The position numbers were made by a program, and so were the translations under genes. Shown piece by piece: positions 33,838 through 41,448 of a stretch of 64,000 bases of DNA. The stretch is from the NCBI GenBank assembly GCA_963749495.1, contig CAVVMW010000005.1, forward strand, positions 288,001 through 352,000. Direction: 5' to 3'. Positions within the stretch are counted from its first letter, which is position 1, and the number at the start of each line of letters is the position of its first letter. The notes under the pieces are model-generated. The model was not told the DNA's origin. It made no database searches and saw nothing but the letters and a program-made list of their open reading frames with translations. Source of the stretch: an uncultured bacterium. GTDB lineage: Bacteria; Verrucomicrobiota; Verrucomicrobiia; Limisphaerales; UBA8199.

Positions 33838-34039
33838 GTGGAAGGCTATTTCCGCTGAAAAACTGAGTAGCCATAGATCCCAAAGGCTCTCATGTAAACT
33901 CCGTCCCGCAAGCTCCGGCGCCAGGTCTGCCACTCGTGTGCGGTGCCCGGCGATTCGTAGAACACGGTCTTGATTCCCGCCTTCTCCAGCGCATCGCGGT
34001 AGTTCTTGACACTGTCGCACATCCGCTTTTGCTCCGCTG

Positions 34040-34336
34040 AACGGTAGGCAGGCGGATCTGGCCGCGAACGGTCCGCACCGCTTCGTCCTGGTCACGAATC
34101 GGCAGCGTGATCCACTCCTCCCAGGTCACCGGGCGGACCTTGGAAGTGCGGAGTGCAGAGTGCGGAGTGCGGAATGAATCGAACTCCAGATCGGGTAGAT
34201 CTTCGCGCTCGATTTCCAGGCCGGTGGCCACGTTGGTGGCCATCATGCAGAACGCCTCTTGAGGCGTGCGCACGTTGATGGCCTGCCAGTTGCGGTTCAG
34301 CACCAGCACGGTCGCTTTTGTCAATGTACTGCTCAT
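34040..34336 (-). pseudogene. HNH endonuclease (McrA-like), N-terminal half, last gene of the tRNA operon
   Basis: VLVLNRNWQAINV...WEEWITLP...IRLPTV; HNH core absent; heptamer insertion in frame. Confidence 0.7.
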
Positions 34337-34415
34337 AAAAAGGGGTCGAGGGTCGAGTGACGAGGACCGGAAGCGCGCTGCGGCCGAGCTTCCCTCGTGG
34401 CCCTTCATCTGCCCA

Positions 34416-34433
34416 AGGTGTTTGTTCTTTGTT
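34416..34433. repeat. 18-bp inverted repeat, trailer arm
   Basis: AGGTGTTTGTTCTTTGTT, exact reverse complement of 41150-41167. Confidence 0.9.
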
Positions 34434-34483: not shown

Positions 34484-34558
34484 TGGCTGCCTCGCCTGGA
34501 ATTGCACCAGGTCCTTCGGTTTCAGAGACCGACGCGCTCCTGATTACACCACGAGGCC
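34484..34558 (-). tRNA. tRNA-Gln(CTG)
   Basis: TCGGT-CTCTGAA-ACCGA arm, encoded CCA. Confidence 0.85.
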
Positions 34559-34627
34559 CGCCGTCGCGCTTTGCGCTAAGGCGCGGCAAGCGATTGGCCC
34601 GCCGAGCCGTAGCCGGCAGGCGAAGGC

Positions 34628-34701
34628 TGGTCGCTCGGGAAGGTCCTGCCCCTCCGATTTCTGGGTGTAGGCCAGACGTGATGCTATTTCACCACCGAGC
34701 C
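34628..34701 (-). tRNA. tRNA-Val(TAC)
   Basis: TCTGG-CCTACAC-CCAGA; C33; CCA. Confidence 0.75.
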
Positions 34702-34811
34702 TTTCGAATGCGGAACTCGGAATGCGGAGTGCGGAGTGCCAAACGAGAACGAAGGCTGCTTGTGCGCGCGCCCCCATTCCGCACTCTGCATTCCCCACTC
34801 CGCACTGGGAA

Positions 34812-34885
34812 TGGCTGCCTCGCTTGGATTCGCACCAAGATCATCGGGGTCAAAGCCCGGCATGCTGCCGTTACACCACGAGGCA
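34812..34885 (-). tRNA. tRNA-Gln(TTG)
   Basis: TGCCTCG acceptor, CTTTGAC loop, CCA. Confidence 0.85.
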
Positions 34886-34993
34886 AGGAATCGGCCTGCC
34901 AAGCCGTAGCCCGGCACGTCACAAATGCTCGCCTCCGCACTAGCGTGCTTCGGCGCAGCAGCCCTCGCCACCCGTCGCGCGTGTGGCGAAGGC

Positions 34994-35070
34994 TGGTGGA
35001 GCCGGAGGTAGTTGCAACCTCACCAAACCCGATTAAAAGTCGGGTGCCGGTCTGCTGTGGCTTCGGATCC
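34994..35070 (-). tRNA. tRNA-Lys(TTT)
   Basis: CCCGA-CTTTTAA-TCGGG; CCA. Confidence 0.8.
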
Positions 35071-35077
35071 AGGAAAA

Positions 35078-35162
35078 TGGTGGGCGAGAGAGGATTTGCA
35101 CCTCCAAGGCTCACAGACTCTCGATCTGTGGGGTCTGCTAATTCCCTCTGAACCACTCGCCC
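35078..35162 (-). tRNA. tRNA-Leu(GAG), atypical fold
   Basis: ACAGA-TCGAGAG-TCTGT; short variable region; C33; CCA. Confidence 0.75.
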
Positions 35163-35171
35163 AAAGAAAAG

Positions 35172-35247
35172 TGGTGCTCCCGGCCGGAATCTCACCGGCA
35201 ACCTCAGCCTTCGGAGGGCCGCGCTCTGGTAATTGAGCTACAGGAGC
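35172..35247 (-). tRNA. tRNA-Arg(CCG)
   Basis: CGGCC-CTCCGAA-GGCTG; CCA. Confidence 0.85.
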
Positions 35248-35343
35248 AGTCCTAATGTGGAATTCGGAATGCGGAGTGCGGAATAAGAATGTGCACAGGG
35301 CTCTGCACACTCCGCATTCCGCACTCTACACTCACCACTTGAA

Positions 35344-35414
35344 GGGGTCTCCTGCCGGTGCTGCCCCGGCCTGGCTTGTTTACAAAACGAGCCTGCAGGC
35401 TGCCGCAAGGAGAC
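35344..35414 (-). tRNA. tRNA-Thr(TGT)-like, small D arm, no CCA
   Basis: GTCTCCT/AGGAGAC acceptor, TTTGTAA loop. Confidence 0.6.
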
Positions 35415-35452
35415 GAGATGGCCTGCCGAGCCGTAGCGCTCGGCGCGAAGGT

Positions 35453-35618
35453 TGGTCGCAATCCCCAGTGCTGCCCTGGGCACGGCTGGCTTATGAAACC
35501 GGCCTGAGCGCTAGCCCTTTCAAGTGCAAAGTGGAGAATGCAAAGTGCGGAATGCACCGGGCGCGGGCGTAGCGATGATAATTCTGCACTCCGAATTCCG
35601 CATTCTGCACTGATGGCG
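35453..35618 (-). tRNA. tRNA-Met/Ile2(CAT), interrupted by a heptamer hairpin
   Basis: TTCATAA loop, CCA; candidate 5' acceptor strand CGCCATC (35612-35618) lies beyond a roughly 90-nt hairpin. Confidence 0.55.
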
Positions 35619-35652
35619 GGTGGGTCTGCTCTTCCCCGTGAACCACGCGCCG
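35619..35652 (-). pseudogene. 5' half of a fifth atypical tRNA-Leu
   Basis: CGGCGCG-TGGTTCAC-GGG-GAAGAGCAGA-CCC matches the other Leu genes. Confidence 0.65.
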
Positions 35653-35658
35653 AGAAGA

Positions 35659-35769
35659 TGGCGTCCCTGACCGGCTTCGCTCCCGCCTTCGCTGGAAAGC
35701 TACGGCGGGGCAGGCCGGTGATCTCCTGCATGAGAGGCAGGCATTTTGTCTGGACTACACCACAGGGAC
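35659..35769 (-). tRNA. tRNA-Glu(CTC) with 33-nt insertion in the T arm
   Basis: CCTGC-CTCTCAT-GCAGG; insert 35682-35714; CCA. Confidence 0.8.
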
Positions 35770-35775
35770 TGAAAA

Positions 35776-35852
35776 TGGTGAGGGCAGGAGGCTTCGCACC
35801 CCCAACCTGATGCATGTGACGCATCCGCTCTGGCTGGCTGAGCTATGCCCTC
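35776..35852 (-). tRNA. tRNA-Val(CAC)
   Basis: GATGC-GTCACAT-GCATC; CCA. Confidence 0.85.
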
Positions 35853-35888
35853 AAAATGGCTCGCCGAGACGTAGCTCCGAGCGAAGGC

Positions 35889-35964
35889 TGGTGGGGGACG
35901 AAGAGTGCTGCCCTCTTTGCCTCTCGGATGTCAGACGAGCGCTCTCCTGGTGAGCTACGTCCCC
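35889..35964 (-). tRNA. tRNA-Val(GAC)
   Basis: CTGACAT loop, GCTC/GAGC D stem; CCA. Confidence 0.75.
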
Positions 35965-35970
35965 AACAAA

Positions 35971-36020
35971 TGGAGCGGGTGGACGGAGTCGCACCGTCGA
36001 CTCGGCCTTGGCACGGCCCT
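35971..36020 (-). pseudogene. tRNA-Gly(GCC), 3' two-thirds only
   Basis: GGCC-GTGCCAA-GGCC, T arm, CACCCGC-T-CCA; 5' part missing next to the GIY-YIG stop. Confidence 0.7.
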
Positions 36021-36030
36021 TGGAGATAAA

Positions 36031-36297
36031 CTAGCTCCCCAGGCTCTCCGCTCCGCCCCAGAAGTGTCGTTTTGCGAAGGCATGGCCGGACCCGCTCTTC
36101 AGGTATTTCTCGAAGTGCTGGGCCTGTTCAAGGGACTCGAACGCAACGTACACCTTGAGCGTCCAAGGTATGAACTTGGACGTGTGCGGACATTTACCGG
36201 CGTTATGGTCTGCCACTCGTTGACGGAGGTCTGCCGTATGACCGATGTACCTCTGGTCGCGGTGGCTCAAGCTCTGGATGACGTATGTGTAAAACAT
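36031..36297 (-). CDS. Stand-alone GIY-YIG nuclease
   Basis: YTYVIQS...YIGHT.DL..RV..HNAG...FEKYLKSGSG. Confidence 0.9.
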   Translation of the reverse strand: MFYTYVIQSLSHRDQRYIGHTADLRQRVADHNAGKCPHTSKFIPWTLKVYVAFESLEQAQHFEKYLKSGSGHAFAKRHFWGGAESLGS

Positions 36298-36680
36298 ATT
36301 GCGGCCTGCCATCCATAGCTTGGAACCCGTTCCGTGGAAAGTCCTCCTTCGCCGAGCCTACGGAGGACATCCTCCGTTTGGCCCCCTCGCCTGGCTCGGG
36401 TTCCGAGCGGAGGATGGTGTCCCCAGCCGATTAAATCCAGAACGAAGAATGCAAAGTGCAGAACGCCCCACTCCCTCGCCATTGTCGAAAACCCAAATCC
36501 ATTTTGCATTCTTCATTCTGAATTCTTCATTTCAAAGGGCGGCCTGGATTGCGGGTCCGGTTCCGCTCGCTGGGAAAGGAGGCCGTTTCCTGCTGCTTGT
36601 GCCGCCAGCGCAGGAACTTCTGAAACCGGGCAAAATTCGTTCGGAGCGAATTTTGATAGGTTTTGTCCTCGAAGAACAAA

Positions 36681-36768
36681 TGGCGGAATGCCGTGGACTT
36701 GCACCACTTGCCTGGAGGCACGCACTCGTTAGCACCGAGGCCCGGTTCGCTTGCCCGGTTGGCATTCC
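36681..36768 (-). tRNA. tRNA-Ser(GCT), 8/4 fold
   Basis: 8-bp acceptor GGAATGCC/GGCATTCC, 4-bp T stem, long variable arm, G73-CCA. Confidence 0.8.
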
Positions 36769-36808
36769 AGAAATGGCCTGCCGAGCCGAAGCTCGACAGA
36801 GCGAAGGC

Positions 36809-36892
36809 TGGTCGGCGTGGGGAGACTTGCGCTCCCAAGGCTGTTCGGGTTTGAGCCGAACCGGTCTGCTATTCCCGGTAAACCACACGCCG
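36809..36892 (-). tRNA. tRNA-Leu(CAA), atypical fold
   Basis: TTCGG-CTCAAAC-CCGAA; A73-CCA. Confidence 0.8.
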
Positions 36893-36924
36893 GCCCGCCG
36901 AGCCGTGGCCCGGGGAGCGAAGGT

Positions 36925-37010
36925 TGGTCGGCGCCCCGGGACTTGCACCCGGAAGGCTCAGCGATTTTAAGTCGCTGGGGTCTGCTGATTCCCGCTGAAG
37001 CCAGGCGCCG
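36925..37010 (-). tRNA. tRNA-Leu(TAA), atypical fold
   Basis: AGCGA-CTTAAAA-TCGCT; A73-CCA. Confidence 0.8.
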
Positions 37011-37123
37011 AGAAAATGGCCTGCCGGGTCGGAGTTCGGAGCGAGGGTCGGATGCCCGCCTACGCCTCAAAGGCAGGCTTCGGCGAGACAGTCTTCGTTC
37101 TCCGCTGCGCTCCGAACGAAGAC

Positions 37124-37207
37124 TGGTGGGCATGGAGGGACTTGCACCCCCAAGGCTGCCAGATTCTGAATCTGGACCCTCTGCTATTCGGGTTGAACCA
37201 CATGCCC
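37124..37207 (-). tRNA. tRNA-Leu(CAG), atypical fold
   Basis: CCAGA-TTCAGAA-TCTGG; A73-CCA. Confidence 0.8.
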
Positions 37208-37216
37208 AGTTGAAAT

Positions 37217-37292
37217 TGGTGCTCCCGGCAGGACTCTCACCTGCAACCGGCGGTTCGAAGCCGCCCGCTCTGATATTTTGAGCTACGGGAGC
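37217..37292 (-). tRNA. tRNA-Arg(TCG)
   Basis: GGCGG-CTTCGAA-CCGCC; CCA. Confidence 0.85.
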
Positions 37293-37378
37293 CCTCCAAA
37301 TGCAGAGTGCGGGATGCAGAGTGCAGAATGACGCCCTTCCGTTCTGCGTCCCCCATTTTGGATTATTCAGTTGAAAAT

Positions 37379-37825
37379 TGGGGCCGGTGGGGAGACTCGC
37401 ACTCCCGTGGTAACTGTTCAGGTGTTGGACCAGTGCTGGCTTCGACGCCAGCGCCGGGCCCAGCCAAGCCGTTGTCCCGGAGGGACAACCCGAGAATAGC
37501 CCGGCGCTTCAGCGCCGGGTCCGACGCCCTAAAAACCCCGCGTCCCGACAGGGACGCCTGAGGCTCAGCACCGCAAGAGGCCAGCCGATTCAGCCGTCCC
37601 TCCGGGACGGGCGGGAGATTAGACCGCTTTCCCCGGCGCTGAAGCGCCGGGCTATTTTCGGGCTGTCCCTTCGGGACAACGACGGCCCTCGAACCAGAGC
37701 GCGTCCCGAGAGGCCCCGGCGGCGATGTGGCAACCCATGTGCCGAGACCTGAACAGTTACCTCCCGTGGGACGAATTGCCCGGCAGTTTACGAAACTGCT
37801 GCTGTCGCTGCTGAGCCACGCCGGC
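37379..37825 (-). tRNA. tRNA-Thr(CGT) with long variable arm, split by a MITE
   Basis: GCAGT-TTCGTAA-ACTGC; removing 37410-37768 restores the gene. Confidence 0.75.
37410..37760. mobile_element. 351-bp MITE-like element carrying a REP-type long palindrome
   Basis: TIRs GTAACTGTTCAGGT/ACCTGAACAGTTAC; direct repeat CTCCCGTG at 37402-37409 and 37761-37768. Confidence 0.9.
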
Positions 37826-37933
37826 CTCCGAAATGCGGAATGCAGAGTGCGGAGTGCGGGATTGCACAGAGCCGTCACAACAACGCTTGTGCTCCTCATT
37901 CCGCACTCAGCACTCCGAACTCCGCACTGAAAA

Positions 37934-38007
37934 TGGTGGGTCGCCACGGTGCTGCCCCGTGCTCTGCGGTTTAAGAGACCGCTGCATCGCTGCAATGCTT
38001 GCAACCC
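37934..38007 (-). tRNA. tRNA-Lys(CTT)
   Basis: GCGGT-CTCTTAA-ACCGC; CCA. Confidence 0.85.
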
Positions 38008-38010
38008 AAC

Positions 38011-38085
38011 CGCGACACGAAGGCGGAGTTGAACCGCCGCAGCCAGATCTGTGAAGTCCTGGCCGGCACCGGTGTTCGCGTCGCG
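38011..38085 (-). ncRNA. tRNA-like RNA (11-bp closing stem, canonical T arm, no CCA)
   Basis: CGCGACGCGAA/TTCGTGTCGCG; GGCGG-TTCAACT-CCGCC. Confidence 0.55.
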
Positions 38086-38090
38086 TGAAA

Positions 38091-38165
38091 TGGAATCCCG
38101 TGTGAGAGTCGCACTCACCTGCGCGGTTTTGCAGACCGCTGCCTGGGCTGCTCGGCCAACGGGAC
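38091..38165 (-). tRNA. tRNA-Cys(GCA)
   Basis: GCGGT-CTGCAAA-ACCGC; U73-CCA. Confidence 0.85.
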
Positions 38166-38273
38166 ATCTGAATGCGGAGTGCGGAGTGCGGAGTGCAGAG
38201 TGCAGAGTGCGCAATGTCTGCGGTGCTGCCCCTCAGGCATTCCGCATTCTGCACTCCGCACTCAGCATTTGGT

Positions 38274-38700
38274 TCACGCTGCCCGCACAAAGTCCGAGAT
38301 GACGGCTGGAACGCTGGTGTCGAAACCAACCACGTCCAGCATCCCGCGGTCGTTCGGGTCGGCCAGGGTGAAGCCACTTAAATGAAGAGTTAAGAATGCA
38401 GAATGAAGAACGGAGGACGCCCTCAGCCGCCGTTGGTCTTGATTCCTCATTGTGCATTCTTCATTCTGCATTCATGTGGGCCCAGACCATCGGCAGCGAG
38501 CAATCCGTGCCGCCCATCGGGATCGCACGGACCTTCTCGATGACGCTTTCCAGGCGCATTCGGGGCGAGAGGGCGACCCGGGTAATGCCTGACTCACCGC
38601 CACCCCGCTGGCCGCCGTGACCGCTGGCGGCTGCGCTGAAGGCGATGATCTCGCACTCGGGGTCGGTTGCCGCCGTCACCAGGGCCATGGCGATGGACAA
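38274..38700 (-). pseudogene. rsr: Ro60/TROVE protein, C-terminal vWA remnant
   Basis: AMALVTAAT...MGGTDCSLPMVWA and GFTLADPNDRGMLDVVGFD; split by a heptamer hairpin, N-terminus absent. Confidence 0.8.
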
Positions 38701-38701
38701 G

Positions 38702-38821
38702 TGGCGCCGTAGGGTGGGGATCTCCTTACGGGAATCGAACCCGTCCGGAACTTGAATCCGGGCGCTCTCCCATGGCGAGCGTCCTCCCCGTGCTGGAGGA
38801 TGACCTGCGGACTTCGGCCCA
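38702..38821 (-). ncRNA. tRNA-like RNA on a long stalk (Y-RNA candidate)
   Basis: D-like GCTC..GAGC, hairpin CCGGA/TCCGG, ACGGG-TTCGATT-CCCGT; ends pair; abuts the Ro60 remnant. Confidence 0.55.
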
Positions 38822-38828
38822 TGCGAAT

Positions 38829-38936
38829 TGGTCAGGAAGCCGGGATTCGCACCCGGACCGTCCGCTTCACAGGCGGAGATGCTGTCCACCCTCCGCAGTG
38901 CTGCTACGGAGGACGGGCTGTTACACCACAATCCTG
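38829..38936 (-). tRNA. tRNA-His(GTG) with 33-nt insertion in the D loop
   Basis: TCCGC-CTGTGAA-GCGGA; insert 38884-38916; A73. Confidence 0.75.
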
Positions 38937-38941
38937 GAAAA

Positions 38942-39019
38942 TGGTGCCCCCAGGTGGACTCGCACCACGATCCTCCTGCTTCGCGGGCAGGCGTGCACAT
39001 TCTCTTACACCTTGGGGGC
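38942..39019 (-). tRNA. tRNA-Arg(GCG)
   Basis: CCTGC-CCGCGAA-GCAGG; C33; CCA. Confidence 0.8.
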
Positions 39020-39112
39020 CTTGGAAGTGCGGATTTCGGAGTGCGGAGTGCGAAATGGCTGACGATTCCGGTGCGCCTCATTCCGCATTCCGCATTCTGC
39101 ACTCTGCACTTG

Positions 39113-39191
39113 GAGCGTCCGTGGCCGGACTTGCACCGGCTATGCCCGGCTTGAAGGGCCGGCTGCTCGAGCCTGCTTTGCATTCACGGAC
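39113..39191 (-). tRNA. tRNA-Glu(TTC)
   Basis: CCGGC-CCTTCAA-GCCGG; C33; G73. Confidence 0.75.
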
Positions 39192-39323
39192 AAATTGTTC
39201 ACCGTGGAAGGCTGGAACCACGGGGATTTCTGAACTCAGAATGGAGAATGAAGAGTGCAGAATGTCGAACCCTGCTGGCTCATTCTGCACTTTGCATTCC
39301 CCACTCTGCATTTGAGAGGCGCG

Positions 39324-40467
39324 CTAACGCCGGAGCGCGCGCGTCTTGTAGGTGAGGAGCGGCCGGAAGGTGGCGATAACCGAGATGAGTCCGGCGTCCG
39401 CCAGGTCCTGGACCACGTCCTCGATGCTCTTGTAGGCGGCTGGGGCCTCTTCGTAGAGCAACTCGCGCGGCTCGCAGATGACTTGGCCCCCCAGCGGCGT
39501 TTGGGTCAACTGCTGCCGGCCAAACCGTTCGCGCATGCGCAGGCGGCTCTCACTCCGGGCCCGACCTGCGGCCGGCACCGTGGGCCAAAGACCAGGCGTG
39601 GCTGACGCCATCTCCAATGGGCTTCACGAGGTAACTGAGCGACCCGCGGGAGCCAGGGATCATCACCGGCTCCCGTTCGGCTGCCACGGCACCCTTCCGA
39701 TGCACCCAGACCGCTTCGCCAGGGCTGCCCCTCACCCCGTCCCTCTCCCCATCGGATGGGGAGAGGGTGGCCGCAAGGCCGGGTGAGGGGACGCGAGCGA
39801 TGCTGTTGTGGCAGCCGTCCCAGAGGCACTCGGCCTCCGCTCCCAGCGCCTCGACGAATCGTCGAGCGATGAGCGCCCGGTTTGTCTTGGCCCACCTCAG
39901 GGCCAAGTCATGGTCGCGGAGATAGCCCGCCGCAGCAAACGACTCGGGATCGGAGCCTTCGGCCTGATGCTCTTCCGCGTACGCCCGCAGGACCGATTCG
40001 CCCAGACCGCGCGAGCCGCTGTGGACCAGAACCACCAGTTGCTGTTTGCCCAGGCCCAACCGCCTGAATGCTGCTGCGTCCAAGACGGCCTCGACCTTCT
40101 GCAGTTCGGCGAAGTGATTGGCGCCGCCGATGGTCCCCAGCGCTTCATCGAACTCCGTGGATTCAAGCTCCGCTACGGCGAGAACCTCGCCCACATCGCC
40201 TTCCCACGGATGCTCCAGGTCAAAGCGAAGGTCGGCCCACCCGCCTACGCGCTCCGCGCTCCGGCGCGGCAGGTCTGTCTTGAACAGGGCCGTGCCGCAA
40301 CCGATGTCGCCGCCGATGAGGTGGGGATAAATGACGCCCTTGGTGACGAGGGCGGCGCCCACCGGGCTGCCCTTGCCCGGGTGCAGGTCCGGGAAACCGA
40401 CCGCCAGGCGTACACTTTCGAGTCGTGCCGCCGCATAAAGCTGGCGAACCGCTTCGCCTTCGATCAT
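39324..40467 (-). pseudogene. rtcB: RtcB-family RNA ligase (PrfH-coupled RtcB2-like), frameshifted near 39560
   Basis: PDLHPGKG, GDIGCG, NHFAE, HSGSRG, HN, HRKGA, HGAGR, EEAPAAYK, RPLLTYK. Confidence 0.85.
39729..39790. repeat. CCCTCACCCC..CCCTCTCCC palindromic element inserted in frame in rtcB
   Basis: Nested hairpin encoding PSPGLAATLSPSDGERDGVRG between the HN and HRKG motifs. Confidence 0.75.
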
Positions 40468-40585
40468 CTGCCTGCCCTCCGCAAAATGTAGAATGAAGAA
40501 TGCAGAATGAAGAATGCCCCGGATCACGCACCGCAGGGCGCGGACGGAGATTCTGCATTCTCCATTCTGCACTCTGCATTTGAAC

Positions 40586-40692
40586 TGGCTGCCAGGGTTG
40601 GACTCGCACCCGCCGTCGCTCGGAGCTATGGCGGGGCAGGCCAACACCTAACGGCTTAACAGGCCGCCGTGCTGCTTTGACACAACCTGGCA
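40586..40692 (-). tRNA. tRNA-Asn(GTT) with 32-nt insertion in the T arm
   Basis: GCGGC-CTGTTAA-GCCGT; insert 40609-40640; G73-CCA. Confidence 0.8.
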
Positions 40693-40694
40693 AT

Positions 40695-40750
40695 TGGCGC
40701 TGCCGGCAGGAGTTGCACCCGCATGAGTTCGTTTAGAAGACGAATGCCCC
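40695..40750 (-). pseudogene. tRNA-Arg(TCT), 5' end replaced by a heptamer hairpin
   Basis: TTCGT-CTTCTAA-ACGAA, T arm, CCA. Confidence 0.7.
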
Positions 40751-40859
40751 TTCCAAGTGCAGAGTGAAGAGTGCAGAGTGCGGAATGCCGCGGTCGGGAG
40801 CGAGTGGCTCCAGCCTCTGGCCATTCTGCATTCCGCACTCCGCACTCCGCATTCAAGAA

Positions 40860-40948
40860 TGGTGGGAGGTGCTGGTAACGCTCCAGTCGTCGCTTCCGAC
40901 AGTTGTTTTTGACGCCGGTTTTACGGACCGGCAGTCGGAACACCTCCC
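40860..40948 (-). tRNA. tRNA-Tyr(GTA)-like, D-armless 8/4 fold
   Basis: GGGAGGTG/CACCTCCC, GCCGGT-CCGTAAA-ACCGGC, A73-CCA. Confidence 0.7.
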
Positions 40949-41065
40949 GAGATTGGCTTGCCGCGCCGTAGCTCGAAGCCGCGCGAATGCACGCGGGCGG
41001 TACGGCCCGCCTTCGCTTCGCTACGGCGCGGCAGCCTCGCTCTCAGACTGGCTTCGAGCGGAGGC

Positions 41066-41138
41066 TGGTAGCGGGGGTGGGAGTCGCGCCCACGAAGGCT
41101 GAGGTTATGGGCCTCGCCTGAATCTCATTCTCCCCGCA
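41066..41138 (-). tRNA. tRNA-Met(CAT), initiator-like, minimal D arm
   Basis: 1:72 mismatch, GCGGGG/CCCCGC, CCCATAA loop, CCA. Confidence 0.7.
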
Positions 41139-41149
41139 GTGAAATGGCG

Positions 41150-41167
41150 AACAAAGAACAAACACCT
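41150..41167. repeat. 18-bp inverted repeat, leader arm (boxA-like on the minus strand)
   Basis: AACAAAGAACAAACACCT; complementary to 34416-34433. Confidence 0.9.
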
Positions 41168-41448
41168 CTTGCTACCTTGCGGTACCAACCCACGGTTTCA
41201 CGGTGGTTCTTTCGGTGTTTGGGGGCACACCTCCTGCGAAGCCCATTTGAATGTAGAATGAAGAGTGTAGAGTGAAGAATGCCGCACGAGCGGCTCCGGC
41301 TCTTTCGACGGGGCGCCCATTCTGCGCTCTGCATTCTGCGCTCTGCATTCGATTATGGTGACATCATCAAGACGTCGGTTTCTTTTCGTTCACAGTGCTT
41401 TGCCTTTCGTTGTCGAGTTTTGCTTCTTTCAGTGCTGCACGGGTAAAC

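Follow-up and report, generated by a model that had tools for sequence, protein, structure and literature searches.

The elbow of a transfer RNA (tRNA), at which the D loop meets the T loop, is built from the contacts of G18 with pseudouridine 55, of G19 with C56 and of T54 with A58. Textbooks treat G18 and the uridine at position 55, which becomes pseudouridine, as near-invariant, and this corner of the molecule is a point of contact for TruB, RNase P, the ribosome and T-box RNAs. Here we describe a dense array of tRNA genes with guanosine at position 55, which lies in a 64-kb stretch of DNA from an uncultured bacterium of the Verrucomicrobiota (the window; positions 288001-352000 of contig C5), and compare it with the rest of the same genome (G000; 11.4 Mb, 63% G+C, 31 contigs, 88% complete), with related genomes and with public sequences.

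The closest described systems are the long tRNA arrays (L-arrays), accessory operons that spread horizontally and stay silent until translational stress, which have been reported from Verrucomicrobia and are linked to HNH endonuclease and RtcB genes (Santamaria-Gomez et al., 2021; PMC8421152); in the L-array of Anabaena (Nostoc PCC 7120), the trn operon, 23 of 26 tRNAs are charged in vivo (PMC8421152). The arrays of the present genome share with this operon the packing of dozens of tRNA genes on one strand beyond the housekeeping set, the link to RtcB, the presence of short tRNAs with Leu anticodons (75-78 nucleotides, nt) and a linked HNH gene, which is homologous to the one beside the Anabaena operon (48% identity over the HNH domain, E 9e-24, BLASTP), the HNH domain of the window's own copy having been lost. 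The window locus, whose 27 T arms share the minus strand of 6.65 kb, qualifies as a dense one-strand array (at least about 20 tRNA genes), and it comes in addition to a complete housekeeping set of 50 non-array tRNAs with 43 anticodons for 20 amino acids. The arrays are of the known long-array kind, and their rewired elbow is undescribed in the literature searched. In contrast to the universal G55 of the present arrays, the tRNAs of the Anabaena operon mostly combine U55 with GG in the D loop (21 of 24), which rules out G55 as a general trait of L-arrays. The HNH gene follows the array here, whereas it precedes the array in Anabaena, and a 17-nt bracket and a leader are features of the present arrays for which no description was found in the main text of PMC8421152. 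That main text also leaves T loop, U55, G55 and G18 unmentioned, and neither an A18/G55 elbow nor arrays of G55 tRNAs occur in the searched text of PMC8421152, PMC4758250 and PMC10272220 or were found in print in the literature searched, a search without subscription journals, figures and supplements.

G55 in array tRNAs and in housekeeping tRNAs

A covariance model built from 31 array tRNAs (the array model), run unfiltered over the full window, gave 24 matches at E ≤ 0.01; every one falls between 34484 and 41138 on the minus strand, the rest of the window being free of matches at this threshold. Curation, which combined a hand scan for T arm, acceptor stem and CCA end with pairwise alignment to paralogues and added the interrupted units, brought the region to 28 pieces, of which 27 have a T arm (Table 1). 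The T loop carries G at position 55 in all 27 and TTC in none, so that what the first-pass annotation of this DNA had claimed for the 27 tRNAs of this span is confirmed by model and curation alike. Outside this count of 27, a TTC T arm does occur in two tRNA-like pieces of the region, one at 38014-38085 and one at about 38700-38824.

Most of the array genes escape standard tRNA finders. ARAGORN with default settings reports only 5 of the 27 units (minus strand of 34.8-38.2 kb), and its 48 calls at a 75% threshold, which fall on both strands and include many spurious ones, were set aside in favor of the covariance model and the hand scan. Eight units of the window reach the Rfam gathering score, while looser thresholds yield 15 matches to the tRNA model up to E 1.3, 13 of them at E < 0.05, together with a weak match to the tRNA-Sec model.

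The genome contains six such arrays, on contigs C4, C5 (the window), C7, C15, C21 and C25. The array model finds 104 further units in the five loci outside the window, 128 in total, and the C7 array has 47 matches in 5.3 kb. A T loop of 7 nt is present in 123 of the 128 units as aligned to the model, and all 123 have G55. An independent division of the genome by ARAGORN (126 calls) yields the same split between array and non-array tRNAs: inside the arrays, G55 is found in 51 of 52 tRNAs, and outside them T54-T55-C56 is found in each of the 50 well-formed, CCA-ending tRNAs, which cover the 43 anticodons and 20 amino acids mentioned above. Housekeeping tRNAs of the host thus do not share the loops of the array, a circumstance that would have spoken against the first-pass reading and was examined for that reason. 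Furthermore, each of the 52 TTC-bearing, CCA-ending non-array tRNAs shows GG between nucleotides 14 and 24, a rough interval that includes part of the D stem. The arrays of four related genomes gave 160 matches, and G55 is present in 148 of the best 150, which were aligned. G55 in the arrays is invariant, whereas positions 54 and 56-60 vary freely; it is neither chance nor a genome-wide habit.

The rare U55 members of G55 arrays were considered as candidate initiator tRNAs, but no association was found, since the units with a CAT anticodon and a 1:72 mismatch divide into 5 with G55 and 3 with U55.

Coupling of the D loop and the T loop

The D loop was scored by the dinucleotides near its 3' end rather than by aligned columns because its length varies. 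Among the 97 units with a clean parse of the D arm, AG occupies this place in 77 of the 84 with C56, AT in 6 of the 8 with A56 and AC in 4 of the 5 with G56; when position 56 was permuted among the units, none of 20000 permutations reached the observed match, and the result is unchanged after removal of duplicate units. Position 56 is thus tracked by the second base of the dinucleotide, which therefore acts as position 19 and makes the preceding base, A, position 18. The canonical G18/U55 contact is accordingly absent from the array tRNAs, in which A18 is the usual partner of G55, while the tertiary Watson-Crick pair G19-C56 is retained with U19-A56 and C19-G56 as variants. In the window, the D loops usually read AG followed by C or T, and Arg(TCG), which has A56, has the D loop AAAATATCA (A18-T19), much as the first-pass annotation had read them.

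The coupling extends well beyond this genome. Public loci were collected with a pattern of two T arms, chosen for G55, and all counts given for them are of distinct tRNAs with C56 among the matches listed. On viral contigs, AG without GG is found in 161 of 185 G55 tRNAs and GG in 126 of 129 U55 tRNAs, and the corresponding numbers for genome loci are 110 of 124 and 61 of 64. The coupling shows most clearly within single arrays of mixed composition, as 14 mixed viral loci combine G55 with AG in 43 of 44 tRNAs and U55 with GG in 74 of 77, and 7 mixed genome loci do so in 29 of 32 and 25 of 27, respectively. Even in the Anabaena operon the two units with G55 (of 24) are the only two that lack GG, their D loops being AATAAGATA and AAAAGTG; tRNA-Glu(CUC) of this operon combines the T loop TGCAACT with A18 in its D loop. 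The coordinated A18-G55 elbow put forward in the first-pass annotation is in this way upheld by the covariation of the D and T loops, both in the 18/55 coupling, mixed arrays included, and in the tracking of position 56 by position 19, and since the changes at 18/55 and 19/56 are matched, the elbow is rewired rather than broken.

A pattern of a single T arm has matches in 26 of the 41 genomes searched (G000 included), and these are clustered in many of the 40 related genomes, compared with at most 3 for the reversed control. Among the 80 public genome loci in the matches listed, G55-rich arrays are mainly from Verrucomicrobiota and mixed arrays are from Planctomycetota, Myxococcota, Gemmatimonadota, Acidobacteriota and Cyanobacteria; about 30 of the 80 are without any tRNA. 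Three or more tRNAs are present in 61 of the 80 viral loci listed, and fully G55 sets occur on viral contigs, whereas many other arrays in these matches are mixed U55/G55. The best public matches of the window itself are Verrucomicrobiota genomes and one viral contig, which carries related pieces up to 95% identical.

The array tRNAs share with canonical tRNAs the cloverleaf, a T loop of 7 nt, the pair 19-56 and, in most units, also the pair 54-58; they differ in having A-G at 18-55, with no uridine at 55 to convert. Positions 54-58 read YGNRA in 94 of the 123 units of this genome and in 116 of the 150 units of its relatives, mostly as UGCRA and sometimes as CGCRA instead of UUCRA, and the remaining loops are GGNRG, AGNNT, AGNRA or singletons. 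The 54-58 pair is T-A in 80 and C-A in 16 of the 123 units, and is changed to G-G, A-T, A-A or T-T in the other 27.

This type of T loop is established in other RNAs. According to the text of a recent preprint (bioRxiv 10.1101/2022.12.26.521914), the T loops of flavin mononucleotide (FMN) and cobalamin riboswitches are UGNRA (88.7%) or CGNRA (10.9%), and the intercalating base, which enters between their fourth and fifth positions, is nearly always adenosine and makes a bond to the sugar edge of the second-position G; the preprint presents tRNA, where U stands at this second position, as the exception, and a GGAAG variant is known from ribosomal RNA (rRNA). The array tRNAs agree with these riboswitch loops in the five-base motif with G at its second position, in the pairing of U or C at the first position with A at the fifth, and in an adenosine as the docking base from the partner loop. 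They differ in that the partner is the D loop, with an adjacent Watson-Crick pair at 19-56 and a geometry that is proposed by analogy with the riboswitches, and in that the setting is a tRNA, where U at position 2 together with G18 is the presumed rule. By this analogy, A18 would stack into the T loop and bond G55, and the array tRNAs appear to use the general solution of a T loop plus an adenosine, which is that of riboswitches and introns, in place of UUCRA and G18. Since a whole parallel set of tRNAs has the matched alternative, the elbow has at least two workable designs, the second of which appears to be the riboswitches' own. Such tRNAs number 27 in the window and 123 as parsed units across the genome, relatives and viral contigs add hundreds to these, and the arrays provide both a natural experiment on the roles of pseudouridine 55 and G18 and candidate tRNA scaffolds that are not modifiable at position 55.

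Fold, identity and role of the array tRNAs

Apart from the elbow, the array tRNAs have the marks of ordinary tRNAs. They form the cloverleaf of the Rfam tRNA family (RF00005), with an acceptor stem of 7 bp and a T stem of 5 bp closing the 7-nt loop. In the 150 aligned units of relatives, 96.9% of stem cells form standard pairs, compared with 55.7% in shuffles, and changes on both sides are seen in 21 of 21 stem pairs. A CCA end is encoded in nearly all array units, the class marks C1-G72 in Pro and U1-A72 in Gln are kept, and the anticodons of the C7 array cover all 20 amino acids. The first-pass annotation had suggested an orthogonal set, a description that is not supported: no dedicated synthetase was found among the open reading frames (ORFs) scanned in the window and in the annotated parts of the five other array loci, and in 48 of 52 array tRNAs the discriminator base agrees with that of a host tRNA of equal amino-acid specificity. 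With the identity marks of the host kept and no synthetase found, the array tRNAs look like a parallel set charged by host enzymes, and their use in translation as a reserve pool may be inferred from these sequence features. The genome encodes TruB, and as G55 cannot become pseudouridine, the array tRNAs are predicted to carry no pseudouridine 55.

The tRNAs with Leu anticodons come in two forms. In the arrays, as in the Anabaena operon, the short ones of 75-78 nt have no long variable arm, while the Leu tRNAs of the host measure 84-88 nt; a second form in the arrays is longer (84-86 nt), with additional bases separating the acceptor stem from the D stem.

Taken together, the window probably holds an eroding copy of a multi-copy cassette of spare tRNAs, of the long-array kind, with an alternative A18/G55 elbow. 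Each cassette comprises a structured leader, tRNA genes flanked by exact 17-nt inverted repeats, an HNH nuclease gene immediately downstream, and RNA-repair genes inside or beside the array. The tRNAs are ordinary cloverleaves with encoded CCA ends and host identity marks in which the D loop would be locked to the T loop differently, through a YGNRA T loop, A18 in the place of G18 and a conserved 19-56 Watson-Crick pair, and they would serve as a reserve pool charged by host enzymes.

Several observations weigh against this reading of the window as a spare-tRNA cassette. The array model was trained on G55 tRNAs, yet it recovers canonical tRNAs at high score. The numbering of the D loop is ambiguous in some units, and the public loci, having been retrieved through a G55 pattern, yield neither G55 frequencies nor enrichment. 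Within the window, Arg(CCG) has C19 opposite A56, and Gln(TTG) combines GG in the D loop with G55. Some units are structurally odd and possibly not chargeable, e.g. the 84-86-nt units with a Leu anticodon but no long variable arm, Met with its poor D arm, and the units with C33. The stacking of A18 on G55 is proposed by analogy, the sequences themselves establishing who the partner is. Finally, the window copy is decaying, with 8 of its 28 pieces disrupted and its RtcB, HNH and rsr genes broken.

As to why the elbow changed, a neutral second design spread by duplication and a design kept for its independence of modification or its escape from enzymes are equally possible. On the first account, A18/G55 is simply an equally good elbow that was fixed in the ancestor of the arrays and spread by duplication or transfer at no advantage. 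The arrays, whose units are 90-100% identical from one copy to another, are segmental duplicates and are common to a bacterial family, YGNRA with an adenosine is an established fold elsewhere (bioRxiv 10.1101/2022.12.26.521914), and the near-perfect 18/55 coupling in mixed arrays looks like two stable states. However, class-specific features (e.g. the D arm of Gln, as judged by eye) are alike in array tRNAs and in the host tRNAs of equal specificity, which suggests separate origins converging on G55, and G55 often stands beside U55 in the same array, albeit in loci that were chosen for G55 and cannot show enrichment. As a complete explanation we regard strict neutrality as possible, but on the doubtful side.

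On the second account, G55/A18 was selected to escape TruB and toxin nucleases directed at the T loop, giving a reserve that is attack-proof or independent of modification and is accompanied by repair enzymes. Most known tRNA toxins cut the anticodon loop, where G55 is of no help, and many arrays are mixed U55/G55, both of which count against selection for escape. It would agree with the invariance of G55 next to the free variation of positions 54 and 56-60, with the RtcB, the RNA ligase and HD-kinase, and the Rsr remnant found with the arrays, with the fully G55 sets on viral contigs, with the inability of the genome's TruB to act on G55, and with a known toxin whose cleavage site in the T loop lies between the conserved T and the pseudouridine, as the text of PMC9086364 relates. 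It is reasonable to consider both independence of modification and escape from enzymes that read the T loop, but selection for a protective design remains rather unlikely as the explanation of the elbow. A more far-reaching version, which we hold only as a speculative and quite unlikely extension, is that A18/G55 would mark a self-sufficient second pool that folds without pseudouridine 55, is invisible to enzymes and toxins reading the T loop and, together with the ligases and the nuclease of the arrays, sustains translation when the housekeeping tRNAs are attacked or modification fails, with bracket and leader as the switch and processing frame that release the whole set.

The array units could also be decoys, i.e. 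tRNA look-alikes that soak up tRNA-cutting toxins or tRNA-binding factors outside translation. The sponging of toxin RNases is raised as a possibility in the text of the Anabaena study (PMC8421152), and some unit shapes seem unlikely to be charged; this account is nevertheless improbable in view of the identity marks, encoded CCA ends and full anticodon repertoire that are kept, the compensatory evolution of the stems, and the charging in vivo of 23 of the 26 tRNAs of the Anabaena operon (PMC8421152). That the G55 units are dead DNA, tRNA pseudogenes or a repeat family whose loop changes reflect decay, would suit the insertions and broken genes that riddle the window copy and the 5 default calls of ARAGORN, but it is very improbable and is already contradicted for the family by covariation, as decay would neither fix G55 in 123 of 123 units nor couple 18/55 and 19/56, 96.9% of stem cells pair, and relatives hold intact 75-nt versions of units that are broken in the window.

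The cassette and the decay of the window copy

Each array is bracketed by an exact 17-nt inverted repeat (Table 1), which has 2 matches in the window compared with 0 expected and 9 matches in the genome, all 9 at array ends; besides the window, it was noted on C4, C15, C21 and C25. The same 17-mer flanks arrays in the related genomes G003, G014, G020 and G028 and is present in public Verrucomicrobiota loci, being identical across genera. The repeats are unlikely to be the ends of a mobile element because copies remain similar outside them, for about 300 nt on the 5' side and into the HNH gene on the 3' side. No resemblance was found between the bracket and the operator of the cyanobacterial regulator TrcR (TGTAGTAT). 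The repeat could act as a protein site, or it could bring the two ends of a long precursor together by base pairing, in the manner of rRNA operons.

Upstream of the 5' repeat, the similarity between copies extends for about 300 nt, of which the 100 nt or so that adjoin the repeat are conserved across genera with a few compensatory changes. This leader has three hairpins and contains the motif AAACACC, which mimics the 3' repeat in being able to pair with the first bases of the 5' repeat. It has no Rfam match at gathering score, and a sigma-70 promoter scan gave 1 match in it, no more than in shuffles. The leader and the bracket suggest, as features of sequence, that the arrays are expressed and processed as a unit. 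Among the sequencing runs listed for this DNA, none is recorded as RNA and the 19 DNA runs all have small shares of it, which carries no weight as to expression.

Table 1. Features of the array region and its borders, in array order (41138 down to 34484 for the tRNA units). The 27 T loops of the window are those given in the tRNA rows. Anticodons are in parentheses or named as such; the last column includes the means of detection.
Feature	Position	Strand	Remarks
Structured leader	41167..41262	-	Just upstream of array; from alignments; common to all six arrays and to arrays of related genera
17-nt inverted repeat, 5' arm	41150..41166	-	GGTGTTTGTTCTTTGTT; exact; brackets array
tRNA Met(CAT)	41066..41138	-	T loop CGCGACT; short odd D arm; 71/73 identical to C15 copy; array model
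tRNA Tyr(GTA)	40860..40948	-	T loop AGCGTTA (A54/T58); long variable arm; hand scan
tRNA Arg(TCT), broken	40695..40763	-	T loop TGCAACT; heptamer-repeat hairpin replaces 5' part
tRNA Asn(GTT)	40586..40692	-	T loop TGCGAGT; 32-nt hairpin between T stem and T loop (about 40609-40640)
RtcB RNA ligase gene (PRK09588 / release-factor-H-coupled type)	39324..40467	-	Split by frameshift
tRNA, anticodon TTC (Glu)	39111..39191	-	T loop TGCAAGT; 2 extra bases before CCA; array model
tRNA Arg(GCG)	38942..39019	-	T loop TGCGAGT; C33; Rfam and array model
tRNA, anticodon GTG	38829..38936	-	T loop TGCGAAT; 33-nt hairpin in D loop (about 38884-38916); 75-nt copies of relatives lack insert
tRNA-like piece	38700..38824 (about)	-	Canonical T arm GGGTTCGATTCCC; directly upstream of rsr remnant; Deinococcus_Y_RNA match 21.8 bits, E 3.5, not significant
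rsr (Ro60) remnant, 3' part only	38274..38712	-	NF041674 positions 390-450 and 497-528 of 531; heptamer-repeat hairpin inside
tRNA Cys(GCA)	38091..38165	-	T loop TGCGACT; ARAGORN and Rfam
D-armless tRNA-like element	38014..38085	-	11-bp terminal stem; TCA anticodon-like loop; T arm GGCGG-TTCAACT-CCGCC; no CCA
tRNA Lys(CTT)	37934..38007	-	T loop GGCAGCA; 74/74 identical to C15 copy; array model
tRNA Thr(CGT), split	37379..37823	-	T loop TGCGAGT; 351-nt inverted-repeat element (37410-37760) at T stem/loop junction
tRNA Arg(TCG)	37217..37292	-	T loop TGAGAGT (A56); D loop AAAATATCA; ARAGORN and Rfam
tRNA, Leu anticodon CAG	37124..37207	-	84 nt; T loop TGCAAGT; no long variable arm; extra bases between acceptor and D stem; 83/84 identical to C15 copy
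tRNA, Leu anticodon TAA	36925..37010	-	86 nt; T loop TGCAAGT; array model
tRNA, Leu anticodon CAA	36809..36892	-	84 nt; T loop CGCAAGT; array model
tRNA Ser(GCT)	36681..36768	-	T loop TGCAAGT; long variable arm; hand scan
GIY-YIG nuclease ORF, 93 amino acids	36031..36312	-	PF01541, E 4.4e-12; occupies place of 5' part of next tRNA
tRNA Gly(GCC), 3' part	35971..36035	-	T loop TGCGACT; 5' part gone; array model
tRNA Val(GAC)	35889..35964	-	T loop GGCAGCA; Rfam and array model
tRNA Val(CAC)	35776..35852	-	T loop TGCGAAG; ARAGORN and Rfam
tRNA Glu(CTC)	35659..35769	-	T loop AGCGAAG; 33-nt hairpin between T stem and loop (35682-35714); otherwise 77/78 identical to C4 copy
Two broken tRNA pieces	35453..35647	-	Odd Leu-type 5' half; 3' part of CAT tRNA (T loop GGCAGCA); heptamer-repeat hairpin between
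tRNA Thr(TGT)	35343..35414	-	T loop GGCAGCA; ends in CCT, not CCA; array model
tRNA Arg(CCG)	35172..35247	-	T loop TGAGATT (A56); D loop AATTACCA (C19); ARAGORN and Rfam
tRNA, Leu anticodon GAG	35078..35162	-	85 nt; T loop TGCAAAT; array model
tRNA Lys(TTT)	34994..35070	-	T loop TGCAACT; array model
tRNA Gln(TTG)	34812..34885	-	T loop TGCGAAT; D loop AACGGCA, paralogues AACAGCA; ARAGORN and Rfam
tRNA Val(TAC)	34628..34701	-	T loop GGCAGGA; Rfam and array model
tRNA Gln(CTG), last array unit	34484..34558	-	T loop TGCAATT; Rfam
17-nt inverted repeat, 3' arm	34417..34433	+	AACAAAGAACAAACACC in array-strand reading
HNH endonuclease gene remnant	33890..34408	-	N-terminal 100 amino acids conserved; repeat-derived insert of 19 amino acids; HNH domain lost

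In five arrays, an HNH endonuclease gene is the next feature past the 3' repeat. Its intact homologue on C7 contains Pfam HNH domains, and the remnant in the window has no Pfam match. Behind the most intact array, that of C7, come HNH, then an RNA ligase (PF09414) together with an HD-plus-kinase protein (L002, 9989-12591), an arrangement that looks like a healing-and-sealing RNA-repair set in place of the RtcB of other arrays. The intact RtcB paralogue in the C4 array has 376 amino acids. An in-frame stretch on the minus strand at 39700-39790 (SPGLAATLSPSDGERDGVRGS) interrupts the RtcB alignment in the window and appears by eye to be a short dispersed insert.

Bacteria have RNA-repair operons in which Rsr (Ro60), Y RNA and RtcB are found together. 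The window array resembles them in that an rsr remnant, RtcB and tRNA-like pieces with a canonical T arm occur together within it, and differs in that these are embedded in a tRNA array and are not an intact module, as only the 3' part of rsr is left, rtcB is split by its frameshift and the Y RNA match is not significant. The TROVE domain has no match in the genome, which is 88% complete, whereas the rsr remnant is confirmed by NCBIfam (NF041674). A decayed Y RNA may account for the tRNA-like piece next to this remnant. The D-armless element has four copies in the genome that are 90-93% identical, the others being at C15:358440-358523, C4:508027-508108 and C4:605371-605455; its match to tRNA-Sec (23.1 bits, E 0.66) is not significant.

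The window array is closest to the C15 copy, with the same order and units 90-100% identical, and considering this likeness and its disruptions it is an eroding segmental duplicate. The eight disrupted pieces are Arg(TCT), Gly(GCC), Asn, Glu(CTC), the GTG unit, Thr(CGT), one of Leu type and one with a CAT anticodon; units interrupted here are intact genes of 75 nt in relatives. The C21 copy of Asn aligns to the array model in an equally truncated form, suggesting that it shares the insert. C7, C4 and the relatives give a better picture of the intact cassette, and it is quite possible, if short of probable, that the window copy is no longer useful.

Heptamer hairpins, formed by inverted runs of TGCGGAG, TGCAGAA and TGCGGAA, are found e.g. 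at 34720-34810, 35255-35335, 38170-38270, 39030-39115, 40750-40860 and 41270-41350. Of 176 heptamer runs in the genome, 30 are in arrays compared with 0.6 expected by length, and the hairpins interrupt rsr, HNH and several tRNAs. A spacer hairpin follows some of the CCA ends (CTTCGC...GCTACGGCTCGGC...GGCCA, e.g. 34590-34627, 35860-35888 and 35425-35452, and also on C4, C15 and C21) and is specific to arrays, with 12 of 12 matches inside them and all on the array strand. The inserts of 32-33 nt in the T loops of Asn and Glu resemble this spacer hairpin reversed, as judged by eye.

Given the RtcB gene nearby, the hairpin inserts were also considered as introns. This was rejected as the main reading because the GTG unit of relatives is 75 nt long without the insert, the T-loop inserts resemble the array spacer, and one insert is the 351-nt element in tRNA-Thr (37410-37760), which has inverted ends (GTAACTGTTCAGGT) and is flanked by an 8-bp duplication (CACGGGAG, at 37761-37768 and 37402-37409). 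Both Rfam matches to Acido-Lenti-1 in the window (37473-37519 on the minus strand and 37632-37678 on the plus strand) are the two arms of this element, and the Acido-Lenti-1 RNA family is, at least here, part of a small mobile element.

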